Source: Gemmatimonadota bacterium (GTDB lineage: Bacteria; Gemmatimonadota; Gemmatimonadetes; Palauibacterales; KS3-K002). From it: DNA of 64,000 nt. The notes under the pieces are model-generated. The model searched no databases and had not been told where the DNA came from. It saw only the letters and a list, made by a program, of their open reading frames with translations. The stretch spans positions 1 to 64,000 of the forward strand of contig JBDHJS010000017.1 of assembly GCA_039586795.1 (NCBI GenBank). Direction: 5' to 3'. Numbering within the stretch: position 1 is the first letter of the stretch; every line of letters starts with the position of its first letter. A program made the translations under genes and the position numbers. Positions 1 to 3,550 of the stretch are shown here, in pieces.

Positions 1-725
1 AGAAGCTCAAGAATCTCCTTGTTTTGTTTCGTTAGCTTGTACTCAACACCGTAGGCATGGCGAACGAAGAAGAGTGGCAGCAGCACAATGAGCAATCCAC
101 CGATTCCAAGCTGCGCAAAAGCGAACACGACAAACAGAGAGAATGAACTCGACGCCAGTTCATTTGCGAACGCCACCGGGCCAAGTTCGCGCCAAATGGC
201 CCGAAGTCGTTTTCCCGTGTCGAGCGCGATCACAATACCCACGAGCGTGGTGTTGATCAGGAAGTAAGTGACTATCAGACCGCCGAGCGGCAGAACAATC
301 GGCCACAGCACGAATTCATCCGCGTGGTGACTAACTGGTCCGCCTAGCGCCCGGTAGACAACCGCCCCACACCCTATCGCCAGCGATATCTGAGCAATAT
401 TGAAGACGGCTTTAACCGGATTCTGCTTTAGAATGAGAAACTGCGATATCGTCTGAGAGAGAATGGTTGAAAGGAGTGCTACGACCGGCCCGAACAAGGG
501 GACCGTAGCGACGGTTGGGATTAGGGAAACGGAGAAGACGGCTCTGCCAGCCGAGAAGCGCACACCGAGGCCTTCGGAGACAACGGTAATCACCATTAGA
601 GCCGAAATGCCAGACCATGCCTTGGGGTCGTTGAGCGGTATCTCGTAGTTAGGTACGATGAGTACCGCAACCGCGACTGCCGCGATTGCCACAAAGGCAA
701 CGTAGGCTAGTAATGATCGTTTCAT
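1..725 (-). CDS. Multi-pass membrane sensor protein, 5' part only (runs off window); probably MASE9-type sensor with a downstream HD-GYP domain
   Basis: Absent from the ORF track because it has no in-window stop. Manual translation from ATG 725 is open to base 1: MKRSLLAYVAFVAIAAVAVAVLIV...KQNPVKAVFNIAQISLAIG...YFLINTTLVGIVIAL...GLLIVLLPLFFVRHAYGVEYKLTKQNKEILEL. About 7-8 hydrophobic segments. The output domain is inferred, not seen. Confidence 0.8.
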   Translation of the reverse strand, partial: MKRSLLAYVAFVAIAAVAVAVLIVPNYEIPLNDPKAWSGISALMVITVVSEGLGVRFSAGRAVFSVSLIPTVATVPLFGPVVALLSTILSQTISQFLILKQNPVKAVFNIAQISLAIGCGAVVYRALGGPVSHHADEFVLWPIVLPLGGLIVTYFLINTTLVGIVIALDTGKRLRAIWRELGPVAFANELASSSFSLFVVFAFAQLGIGGLLIVLLPLFFVRHAYGVEYKLTKQNKEILEL

Positions 726-766
726 AGCTCGGCGTTGAGAACGAAAGAAAAACCCCCAATCAAGCT

Positions 767-835
767 CTAGCCCCAAGTAATAGTTCCGGCAAACAAGCTC
801 GCCATTGCGAGCAACATCCGGAGCAGCCACGCCAT
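767..835 (-). CDS. 22-aa hydrophobic small peptide MAWLLRMLLAMASLFAGTITWG
   Basis: ATG 835 to TAG 769-767, preceded by AAAGGAGGTGAA (852-841); AGGAGGT lies 8 nt from the ATG. Below the ORF-track cutoff. Confidence 0.75.
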   Translation of the reverse strand: MAWLLRMLLAMASLFAGTITWG

Positions 836-840
836 GGAGC

Positions 841-852
841 TTCACCTCCTTT
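841..852 (-). promoter_or_regulatory. Extended Shine-Dalgarno for the small peptide
   Basis: Minus strand reads AAAGGAGGTGAA-GCTCC-ATG. Confidence 0.85.
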
Positions 853-895
853 CGCGGGATCATGTCACGCTGGTTTCGCTAGTCCAGCGTGCGGG

Positions 896-933
896 TACTT
901 CCGCTCCGCTAAATTCGGCTACTTCGCTCCGCT
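896..933. repeat. Direct repeat pair TACTT(C)CGCTCCGCT
   Basis: 896-910 TACTTCCGCTCCGCT and 920-933 TACTTCGCTCCGCT. Confidence 0.7.
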
Positions 934-1040
934 TCCAGTGACGCGTCAGCTAGAGCAGGATCGGGGGTTTTTTCTCACTCACGGGGCAGGCGGGGTACCC
1001 AGTGTCGTTAGGGCTCCTTTCGCTAGGTCACCGGTCCGCG

Positions 1041-1781
1041 TCAGCGGACCGACAGTATCCAGCGATTCGTGGCTTGCAGGGTCGCCAGAATCGCCGCGTG
1101 TTCCGTCGATTCATTGACCGGCGCGGCGCCGGCCAGATATGTCCTTGTCCTGCCCGATAGGCCGTACAGTGCCGTGACGACCACCGGGACATCAAATATG
1201 TCAATTAGCTTCACGCCGTCGAGGGCGAAGTTGAGATCGCCTTTTTCGGCCTTTTCGAGGGCGAAAAGGACCGCCTCGGCAGCGGCGTTCAGCCGGCCGC
1301 GCTCGATATCGGTGCCTTCTGCTTCGCCGATGAACTTCTCGCCGTCCAGGGTCAAGCGCACTCGACAGATGATGCTCTGCGGCATCTTCCGCTCGAACTC
1401 GTAACCCTCGAACAGGTAACGCCGCAGGGCAGTGCCCGACGGCCCGATCCCGATGACCTTGTTCGTCGCGGCGTTCGCCGTGCCCTGGGTTTGGGCGACG
1501 CTCACCTTGCGGTGATCGACTTTCAGGCCCAACTGGGCGAGCAACGCCGACTCGACGTTTCGTACCGTTTGCTTTGGCGTCACCGAATCGTTGGTGAGGA
1601 TATGTATCTCCTCGATCCGACCCGTCGGGTCGGCCACGATACGAGCTGACACTACACCGGTCAGCTCCCCTAACAGCGCCTCCGCTCGCTGAAGCTGCTC
1701 GGGGTCACTGCCGCTGGTAAATGCTTCCAACCGCCACGCCTCACCGAAACTGTGTTCGTTTGCCTCCACGGCCACACCCAT
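1041..1781 (-). CDS. Conserved hypothetical two-domain protein; C-terminal domain paralogous to 17908..18477
   Basis: 246-aa ORF with EEIHIL...PKQTVRNVESAL...VDHRKVSVAQ in the N-domain and FIGEAEG...AAILATLQATNR in the C-domain. Confidence 0.8.
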   Translation of the reverse strand: MGVAVEANEHSFGEAWRLEAFTSGSDPEQLQRAEALLGELTGVVSARIVADPTGRIEEIHILTNDSVTPKQTVRNVESALLAQLGLKVDHRKVSVAQTQGTANAATNKVIGIGPSGTALRRYLFEGYEFERKMPQSIICRVRLTLDGEKFIGEAEGTDIERGRLNAAAEAVLFALEKAEKGDLNFALDGVKLIDIFDVPVVVTALYGLSGRTRTYLAGAAPVNESTEHAAILATLQATNRWILSVR

Positions 1782-1822: not shown

Positions 1823-3550
1823 CTAGTTCGCGATTCTGATCGCATCGCCGCCGGAGCGCTTGGCCTCCAAAAGCGCTTCATCGGCAGCGGCCAGCATCTC
1901 GTCGTAACCGGCGGTCAGGGATTCCCCCGGCCCGACTTCAGCGATGCCCACACTGACGGAGACCCCCATCTCGGTCCCGTCTTCGCCCGTGGCCCGAACC
2001 TCGGCCACACGGGCCCTTATCTCGCTTGCGACCCTCAGCGCGCCGTTCTTGTCGCCGTCCGGCAGGATGATCACGAACTCATCGCCGCCGAAGCGGGCCG
2101 CGAAATCGTTGGCGCGGATCGATTCCTTGATCACCGCCGCCACGTCACGCAAAACCTGGTTGCCGGCCGCATGTCCCAGCCGGTCGTTGACCGGCTTGAA
2201 GTGGTCGAGGTCGAGAAAGACGACCACGAACTTGCCGCCGGTCCGCCGCACCCGGGCGCATTCCTCGAGGATCCTGCTCCGCAAGACCCGGTACGAGTAA
2301 AGCTGCGTCAGCGCATCGTAGGCGGCTTCCTGCACCGCCGTCTCGTACCTTCGCGCCTGGAAGAACGGACAAATGTCCAGACGCGCCCGCGCCCTCAGTA
2401 CCGCCGCTGCGAACGACCTGCATCCTGTGAAGCCGCAGGCGCCGCAGTCCCAATCCTTGCCGTTGTTGGCGCGACCGATGCGCTGCTCGATCAGCGCCTC
2501 TACCTCGGCTTCCGTCACAATGCCGCCGTTGCCCGCCGGCTGCCGATCGGTGGAGAGATCGACCGGTTGCTTGACGTCGATCACCGGGACCGACGCCCGG
2601 GGCGGTTCGGCCTCGGCCGCGATCTCGCGCCGCAGGTAGAGCTGCGACTTGGGGCCCATGACCGGGTGGTCCAGATCTCGCTCGTAGACCAGCAGGTCGA
2701 TGAACCCGAGCTGCGGCTCGCCCGCGGAGCGCTCCACGGCCTCCGCGATCGCGGAAACCTCCTCCAGGCCTCGTACCTTCCGGAAGCGGCGCGAGTTACC
2801 GCGCTCCTCTTCCAGAACCGGCAACGGCATGCCGCCCGCCGTGGACAGATAGCGTTGCCGCCCAACCGTCTCCCGCTCCAGCTGCAGTGGCTGCTTGAGC
2901 GGCGCCGCGCCGTGCTCGTCCAGCAAGCACTCCAGCTCGGCGAAGGTGATGGACGCGTCGATCGGCCTCTCTTCCTCTTCGGGCGCCCCGAAATTGCCGA
3001 TCCCGCAGTACACAATCTTTACGCCATCACCGTGAATCCGGTGCAGGTACCGGGCTTGAGCCACGGCCGGCGTCACCACCGGCGCCATGAACGGCATCAG
3101 CTCCGGGTACCTGCGCTTCACATACTCCACCACGATGGGTGAAGTAGAGCGAATCGTCGTCCGGTCCAGCCCGTCGCGCCACAACCTCAGGTACTCATGC
3201 GCCACGAGCTCGTCGCCCAACACTCCCGGGTAAACCGCCCGGAATCCGGCGGCGTAGCAGGCATTAAGCACCTGCTCGGCCGTCGCCGGGTGGAAGTGGA
3301 CGACGGACTCCGTTCCCAAAATCAGCACCGCGGCCCGACTGTCGAGGTGCTTGCGGGCGGCCGCCAGATCGCCAGTTGCGTCGATGGCGTCATGTTGGCA
3401 GGCCGGCACGCAAAGGCCGCATTCTATGCAGCTTTTCTCGACGATTTGTAGGGTGCCGTCCTGGGTCTGCACCGCTTCAACCGGACACACCCGAACGCAC
3501 GCCATACATTCGACGCACCTCGACCGGGCTATCCGGAATGTCAAGCTCAT
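1823..3550 (-). CDS. Diguanylate cyclase with N-terminal 2x[4Fe-4S] ferredoxin, [FeFe]-hydrogenase-like and Fe-S domains
   Basis: CVECMACVRVCP and CIECGLCVPAC; DCGACGFTGC...DICP; DLDHFKPVNDRLGH...GN; RAND-FAARF-GGDEF. Confidence 0.9.
   Translation of the reverse strand: MSLTFRIARSRCVECMACVRVCPVEAVQTQDGTLQIVEKSCIECGLCVPACQHDAIDATGDLAAARKHLDSRAAVLILGTESVVHFHPATAEQVLNACYAAGFRAVYPGVLGDELVAHEYLRLWRDGLDRTTIRSTSPIVVEYVKRRYPELMPFMAPVVTPAVAQARYLHRIHGDGVKIVYCGIGNFGAPEEEERPIDASITFAELECLLDEHGAAPLKQPLQLERETVGRQRYLSTAGGMPLPVLEEERGNSRRFRKVRGLEEVSAIAEAVERSAGEPQLGFIDLLVYERDLDHPVMGPKSQLYLRREIAAEAEPPRASVPVIDVKQPVDLSTDRQPAGNGGIVTEAEVEALIEQRIGRANNGKDWDCGACGFTGCRSFAAAVLRARARLDICPFFQARRYETAVQEAAYDALTQLYSYRVLRSRILEECARVRRTGGKFVVVFLDLDHFKPVNDRLGHAAGNQVLRDVAAVIKESIRANDFAARFGGDEFVIILPDGDKNGALRVASEIRARVAEVRATGEDGTEMGVSVSVGIAEVGPGESLTAGYDEMLAAADEALLEAKRSGGDAIRIAN

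Follow-up and report, generated by a model that had tools for sequence, protein, structure and literature searches.

A 22-aa hydrophobic peptide is encoded directly upstream of a membrane sensor gene in the window, by which we mean the whole 64,000-nucleotide stretch of Gemmatimonadota DNA analysed here. The ORF is conserved and carries a coding signature, the gene order around it is maintained, the RNA in which it lies shows covariation, and the peptide co-diverges with MASE9, the membrane domain of the sensor. Modelling predicted an ECF S-component fold for MASE9 and, for a homologous pair, a peptide-MASE9 complex. We give an even chance to the hypothesis that the peptide is held in the membrane, where, by binding the pocket of the adjacent MASE9 domain, its Gly..Trp tail would tune c-di-GMP hydrolysis.

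Table 1. Features of the locus, with positions in the window
Feature	Position	Strand	Basis or remarks
MASE9 membrane sensor domain (ECF S-component-like model)	1..725	minus	Pfam, model; relatives
P1 long-range stem, 3' arm	748..771	minus	holds the peptide stop codon, ends in a U-rich run
22-aa peptide gene (hydrophobic helix, FAG, tail T-I-T-W-G)	767..835	minus	ORF, homologues, synonymous bias
Shine-Dalgarno (SD) sequence of the peptide gene	842..852	minus	partly paired in folding models
8-bp covarying hairpin, UAGCGA loop	866..891	minus	covariation, folding
Four AGCGR words in two AGCGGAGCG repeats	901..933	minus	candidate protein-binding sites
P1 long-range stem, 5' arm	949..973	minus	encloses leader and ORF
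Conserved unnamed 246-aa protein	1041..1781	minus	N-terminal alpha/beta domain and LeuA/citramalate-synthase-type regulatory fold

The small gene and its conservation

The preliminary description had reported a 22-aa ORF preceded by AAAGGAGGTGAA-GCTCC-ATG and separated by 41 nt from the sensor ATG, and had left the strand unstated. All of these elements were present on the minus strand, with the peptide ATG at 835, the stop codon ending at 767 and the sensor ATG at 725. The sensor reading frame is open back to an ATG at 863 and this extension overlaps the peptide ORF, so it would mask the peptide in an annotation; it is inconsistently kept among relatives. The genome contains 900 SD-led ORFs of 12-45 aa; 48 of them are hydrophobic, and a single one of these 48, the window peptide, ends in a small-small-x-W tail. 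The exact peptide was absent from a collection of 15 billion proteins, in which three of ten family peptides looked up were present, unnamed or as 'hypothetical'. An environmental allele differed by 9 synonymous and 4 amino-acid changes. In contigs from runs X2 and X10 the upstream gene was covered identically and the peptide and sensor were uncovered, a gap that proves nothing at a contig depth of 2-4x.

A MASE9 profile found matches in 161 of 301 Gemmatimonadota genomes, a tally that takes in one unpublished genome (G187) otherwise unused. The first loci were supplemented with 80 further matches from the list, four duplicates and one locus without upstream DNA were dropped, and 120 distinct loci were examined. 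When an SD-led ORF with a hydropathy of at least 1.5 was sought in loci with at least 250 nt upstream, 107 of 114 had a peptide ORF. With a relaxed rule (hydropathy 1.2, 200 nt upstream), applied identically to control genes, a peptide ORF preceded the sensor in 114 of 117 loci versus 39 of 1957 control genes. Among the 114 picks, the one at L054 was in the wrong frame; the true peptide there was found under the first rule. Two of the three missed loci had the peptide behind a weaker SD, as judged by eye, and the third (L009) was without the cassette; there, in genome G015, the sensor lies behind a kinase-like gene with neither leader nor peptide. A search for such peptides beside sensor homologues, as proposed in the preliminary description, was positive in 114/117 Gemmatimonadota loci and, among the matches listed, in 59/64 loci of other phyla. 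The same description held that orthologues with a broken reading frame or ribosome-binding site would speak against a gene; both were kept, except for one deletion, at L014 (genome G005, 1268-1324), which removes the peptide tail, the 3' arm and the sensor start.

Gemmatimonadota peptides range from 14 to 35 aa and their hydrophobicity is kept. A Trp lies within four residues of the C-terminus in 100 of 114, and 55 of the 59 peptides of other phyla, among the matches listed, had a terminal aromatic residue. In the window family, tail positions 18 and 20 are variable between fixed G, I/V, W and G; in two loci (L212 in G009, L024 in G291) the tail motif is tandemly duplicated. Comparing 22 disjoint close pairs of peptide genes, 166 of 323 changes fell at third codon positions, and codon changes comprised 105 synonymous and 134 non-synonymous ones. 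The SD, start, stop and synonymous bias being kept, comparative analysis indicated that the ORF is a conserved protein-coding small gene, the translation of which we infer. Scanning 102 of the 113 Gemmatimonadota members and 16 peptides of other phyla with Pfam and NCBIfam returned no peptide match over cut-off; one of the 16 gave a below-cutoff match to the Phr N-terminal model (E 0.006).

The module consists, in order, of the 246-aa protein gene, a leader with a predicted RNA fold, the peptide and MASE9-HD-GYP; the 246-aa protein gene is upstream in 100 of 113 Gemmatimonadota loci. A locus search with a broad MASE9 alignment yielded no conserved seed, and other phyla were reached using the 246-aa protein as bait, which limits the sample to sensors adjoining that protein. 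The best 80 of at least 586 genome loci were analysed together with 2 plasmid records, with labels of Bacillota, Actinomycetota, Armatimonadota and Atribacteria; the MASE9 query itself had no match in plasmids. Among the matches listed, a membrane HD-GYP gene lay within 1.5 kb in 64 of the 74 bait loci with enough downstream DNA, as found with a sensor profile in which HD-GYP columns were included; of two cases checked with Pfam, one had a confirmed MASE9. Within the same matches, 59 of the 64 sensor-bearing loci had a peptide by rule and the other 5 by eye, and the 10 loci lacking a sensor showed one doubtful ORF and no AGCGRAG word, which argues that leader and peptide are linked to the sensor and not just to the bait. 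Natranaerobius, Thermosediminibacter and Clostridium punense, cultured Bacillota among the matches listed, carry the module, so a peptide-sensor test would be easy. Six Armatimonadota-type loci (L145, L148, L150, L152, L153, L167) encode peptides with a clear signal-peptide-like N-terminal part and a long Pro-rich soluble tail of at least 20 residues; on sequence features these appear to be the best cases for true secretion. One actinobacterial locus also contains a raiA RNA motif (L165, 1326-1543), some 1.5 kb ahead of the module in the upstream direction.

The RNA element and the upstream protein

Comparative evidence placed the ORF inside a covarying RNA element that the preliminary description had overlooked. 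The arms of the long stem are complementary in the window (z -3.5). Across 108 Gemmatimonadota loci, cognate arms paired with a mean of -34.4 kcal/mol, compared with -23.6 for shuffled and -22.7 for non-cognate arms; the corresponding values in 60 loci of other phyla, among the matches listed, were -26.2, -17.2 and -17.8 kcal/mol. Cognate arms beat all six shuffles in 100/108 and, among the matches listed, 44/60 loci. The word AGCGRAG was present in 108/108 Gemmatimonadota leaders and in 57/60 others (among the matches listed), against means of 0.02-0.03 in sensor genes, and a helix of at least 6 bp closed an AGCGR loop in 113 of 169 leaders (among the matches listed) versus 14% after shuffling. 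In 15 same-order sequences, double changes were found at 11 of 18 pairs, a result matched by 0 of 500 shuffles in a test that favours the structure because this was derived from the same alignment. SD zones were predicted to be about 65-70% paired on average, a value with no matched null, and the window SD was only partly paired. A U-run followed the stop codon in only 40/108 Gemmatimonadota and 31/60 other loci (among the matches listed), so that termination is not a rule across the loci. No consensus structure emerged when 72 leaders from different phyla were aligned on sequence alone; stem lengths vary among leaders, and anchored tests were therefore used instead.

The genome contains a single copy of the full leader pattern. 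Rfam covariance models gave no credible match in window 600-1200 at E <= 10 and no match over the leaders of 12 other loci. Term searches in the main texts of three ncRNA-discovery papers (PMC11109978, PMC8632094 and PMC6429828), the supplements of which could list the motif, returned no description of it. Viral contigs contained 120 matches to the core RNA pattern; 3 had an SD and start, and none encoded a family-type peptide. The leader is reminiscent of TRAP, ANTAR and CsrA targets. Regulation by CsrA was rejected: csrA had 0 matches in the genome (97.8% complete), with positive control searches. A DNA inversion between the arms is unlikely, as the orientation is the same in every locus examined and the arms pair with G-U wobbles; DNA operator repeats of fixed spacing are also unlikely, the spacing being ~14 to 25 nt.

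Other elements were observed around the leader. Runs X1 and X15 contained near-identical contigs with 20 extra bases immediately 5' of the long stem, at window 977 on the minus strand, comprising an SD-like word and a 3-codon start-stop ORF that ends at the 5' arm. ORFs of 2-4 codons just 5' of the long stem were found in most family relatives; the 3-codon ORF may represent a second ribosome-based switch, lost in the window strain or in its assembly. Between the stem and the 246-aa gene there is a further family-conserved block (window 980-1030) with a GAAAGGAG word and a GC-rich hairpin; many other families also have an AGGAG word before the long stem. Elsewhere in the genome, a four-copy repeat with long flanking inverted arms (C33 at ~23939, minus; C80 at ~71651, minus, 73414, minus, and 76688, plus) carries a AGCGGAGC word together with a hairpin whose UAGCGA loop resembles that of the leader; it is probably a small mobile repeat.

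Modelling of the 246-aa protein predicted a LeuA/citramalate-synthase regulatory fold for its C-terminal part (Z 10.3, rmsd 3.0, 110 residues aligned) and an alpha/beta domain at its N-terminus, the match of which is unspecific (Z ~8). Sequence searches of the Atlas and the PDB returned no named relative. The protein is a candidate regulator of the RNA leader and may bind RNA. Four family-genome proteins (L215, L216, L218, L219) have only its C-terminal LeuA-type domain. Directly upstream on the same strand, window 1823-3550 encodes an Fe-S cluster/hydrogenase-like GGDEF cyclase, a possible redox-controlled counterpart to the phosphodiesterase.

The MASE9 sensor and its pairing with the peptide

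The sensor gene leaves the contig after 241 codons, at the junction where relatives begin HD-GYP. The window sensor scored over the Pfam MASE9 cut-off (36.4 bits vs 24.3, E 6.7e-9). HD-GYP follows MASE9 in relatives, with intact motifs in 112 of 113; this part of the window copy is absent from the assembly. The MASE9 model (pLDDT 94) had a best structural match with Z 13.1 and rmsd 3.5 over 160 aligned residues, and ECF S-components and their kin filled the top 15 rows (Z 8.4-13.1, ~13% identity; a Z near 13 can arise among helical bundles). Foldseek gave the same ranking, with a best E of 1.4e-3 and no match at E <= 0.001. MASE9 is thus predicted to have an ECF S-component fold, the match spanning most of the domain. 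S-components bind a single small ligand in a pocket that faces outward.

The sensor gene is less GC-rich than its surroundings, as the preliminary description had judged by eye: its GC is 0.54 and its GC3 0.61, compared with 0.62-0.66 and 0.76-0.84 in four neighbours, and values as low occur in 4 of the genome's 185 hydrophobic ORFs. In 73 of 78 loci MASE9 has a lower GC3 than the upstream gene; the HD-GYP part has the same GC3 as MASE9 (0.64). Being phylum-wide and shared by the HD-GYP domain, low GC gives no sign of fast evolution; recent horizontal transfer was rejected as its cause on the same phylum-wide distribution. Low GC3 is an old trait of the whole sensor gene and perhaps reflects low expression.

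The same genome (G000) has a second MASE9-HD-GYP gene (L002, C64:31628-32850), 62% identical and with its 5' end cut by the contig end, which could be a tandem copy or a second allele of the window sensor. A convergent gene for a TPR-bearing regulator of 1123 aa comes after it, as it does in relatives. Genome G044 also has a second MASE9-HD-GYP copy, cut at nearly the same residue. Contigs end within the 1.7-kb cassette in 8 of 12 family genomes (by eye), versus 1.3 expected from mean contig size, which is a hint of allelic diversity.

In 53 disjoint pairs, MASE9 was less conserved than HD-GYP in 52 (identity 0.57 vs 0.78; peptide 0.58), a comparison of rates made without an unrelated membrane protein as control. 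Divergence of the peptide correlated with that of MASE9 given HD-GYP (rho 0.55, p 2e-5) and not with that of HD-GYP given MASE9 (rho 0.00). These alignments suggest that peptide divergence tracks MASE9, not HD-GYP, to which adjacency and joint recombination could contribute. The earlier proposal of a fast-evolving sensor domain agreed with this divergence in excess of that of HD-GYP. Co-prediction of peptide and sensor, also suggested there, gave weak support on one natural 31-aa homologue with its own sensor (L081; score 0.46 vs 0.00 for the best control). At least 97% of contacts agreed between runs and the partner pLDDT was at least 68. Among solved pairs 116 of 157 reached the mark for a complex, as did 2 of 215 mismatched ones; at scores of 0.60 or below it was reached by 18 of the 157 solved pairs and by both passing mismatches. 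The ligand/receptor pair of the preliminary description was sustained in part, as regards a conserved gene, its fixed link to the sensor, a pocket-type fold and a weakly supported complex, but not as regards export, cleavage or a diffusible ligand.

We hypothesize that the small gene is translated into a hydrophobic peptide that, in Gemmatimonadota, would stay uncleaved in the membrane. The pocket of the adjoining MASE9 domain, S-component-like in the model, would bind the short tail of the peptide (Gly..Trp), and this binding would tune c-di-GMP breakdown by HD-GYP. The long stem may seal off the peptide message as a unit that is stable or terminated, which would let the peptide outnumber the sensor; the AGCGR repeats may bind a protein, most simply the 246-aa neighbour, which would open the SD. 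Ribosome gating through the long stem may act additionally. Against this reading, some members have only 14-16 aa, too few to span the membrane fully and still carry the tail. A broader proposal, which we regard as unlikely, is that the S-component fold serves in several phyla as a strain-specific peptide receptor wired to c-di-GMP breakdown, with peptide synthesis gated by a protein-bound RNA switch whose reader is a LeuA-type amino-acid-sensing protein.

Alternative readings and known systems

The peptide could instead be a pheromone precursor that is exported and cut after the small-residue motif, releasing a tail of 4-6 residues that diffuses and binds MASE9 on neighbouring cells as strain-specific alleles. 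This shares the ligand with the membrane-held peptide and differs in cleavage and diffusion. A ligand of 4-6 residues suits an S-component pocket, and the variable positions 18 and 20 among the fixed tail residues of the window family agree with alleles of this kind. So does the excess of assembly breaks in the cassette (8/12 vs 1.3), which allelic mixtures would cause, although such breaks may have other causes. Outside Gemmatimonadota, simple patterns found a basic N-region in 58/59 peptides and an AGGA/ASA-type motif in 51/59, and a DUF5317-like gene, encoding a candidate processing protein, followed in 47/74 bait loci (all among the matches listed); the single below-cutoff Phr match points the same way. 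In Gemmatimonadota, however, the two patterns were found in only 20 and 7 of 108 peptides, respectively, DUF5317 was found in 0 of 101 genomes, and the loci inspected had no conserved exporter or protease gene beside the cassette, although a general peptidase encoded elsewhere might act on the peptide. The N-terminal part of the peptide, earlier described as a signal or membrane anchor, mostly lacks signal features in this phylum. We consider a diffusible pheromone a rather doubtful explanation. It is quite improbable that the ORF acts purely as a leader uORF, with a ribosome at its stop melting the stem to allow transcription or translation of the sensor gene and the peptide itself inert. The stop codon does overlap the 3' arm, with a U-run at the arm end in the window, and the long stem is kept across phyla; low sensor GC3 (73/78 loci) is frequent in weakly expressed genes, and in S. 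venezuelae HdgA ranks with the c-di-GMP proteins of lowest expression in the available text of PMC6205966. Such a role needs neither amino-acid constraint nor co-divergence with MASE9, and the peptides keep their hydrophobicity at lengths anywhere between 14 and 35 aa. The terminal residue belongs to the aromatic class (W, F, Y) and is not one codon, which argues against Trp-codon sensing.

A type I toxin, proposed as an alternative in the preliminary description, fared poorly and strikes us as highly improbable. It would involve a paired-end mRNA with a hidden SD and a membrane-damaging peptide, and the locus does have a small hydrophobic product, long-range 5'-3' pairing and a partly paired SD, similar to traits listed for aapA1-type loci in the source text available. 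Against it, the last 8 residues have a net charge of 0 or below in 96 of 108 Gemmatimonadota peptides, while most type I toxins have cationic C-termini, with exceptions (PMC8309996, available text). A consensus scan of the opposite strand found neither a promoter nor a terminator for an antisense RNA, the genome has the full leader pattern at a single place and in fixed synteny with a signalling enzyme, and there was no family-type peptide among the 120 viral matches to the core motif.

Collectively, the module would be a form of peptide control of a membrane sensor and is absent from the literature searched; the search, with subscription papers outside its coverage, returned no description of a peptide-MASE9 module and no papers on DUF5317. 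MASE9 is an orphan sensor domain, present in several phyla besides Gemmatimonadota, and the peptide is its first candidate ligand or partner. If true, the membrane-held mechanism would connect a peptide directly to c-di-GMP, put the S-component fold to use in signalling and bring in a cis RNA motif that Rfam lacks.

By Pfam, the window sensor is a member of the MASE9-HD-GYP group (T. maritima TM1467, S. venezuelae HdgA; PF20972), with HD-GYP seen in its relatives. The available text of the MASE9 preprint (10.1101/2021.11.05.467447) suggests intramembrane ligand binding, names no ligand and does not use the word 'peptide'; unlike the present locus, it features no peptide gene, RNA element, upstream protein or S-component fold. 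As for type I toxin mRNAs such as aapA1 and hok, in the descriptions available, the window combines a small hydrophobic ORF, long-range pairing and a partly hidden SD; it differs from them by having no cationic tail, no antisense RNA seen and a fixed link to a signalling enzyme. The window product is also tiny, hydrophobic and plausibly bound to a membrane sensor, like MgrB and SafA. MgrB-PhoQ and SafA-PhoQ are pairs in which small membrane proteins regulate membrane sensors; here the target is an HD-GYP enzyme and not a histidine kinase, the gene lies in a conserved RNA and the peptide has no family match over cut-off. Phr/Rap, SHP/Rgg and AgrD/AgrC are peptide pheromone systems, with which the locus shares a short precursor, a hydrophobic N-terminal part and a variable short tail beside a putative fast-evolving receptor. 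Unlike in these systems, that putative receptor would be an S-component-fold membrane domain fused to a second-messenger enzyme, and no AgrB, thiolactone Cys, exporter or protease was found beside the window locus. The predicted MASE9 fold best matches ECF S-components, like RibU, BioY, ThiT and FolT; MASE9 differs from these in being fused to HD-GYP, and its ligand would be a peptide instead of a vitamin.
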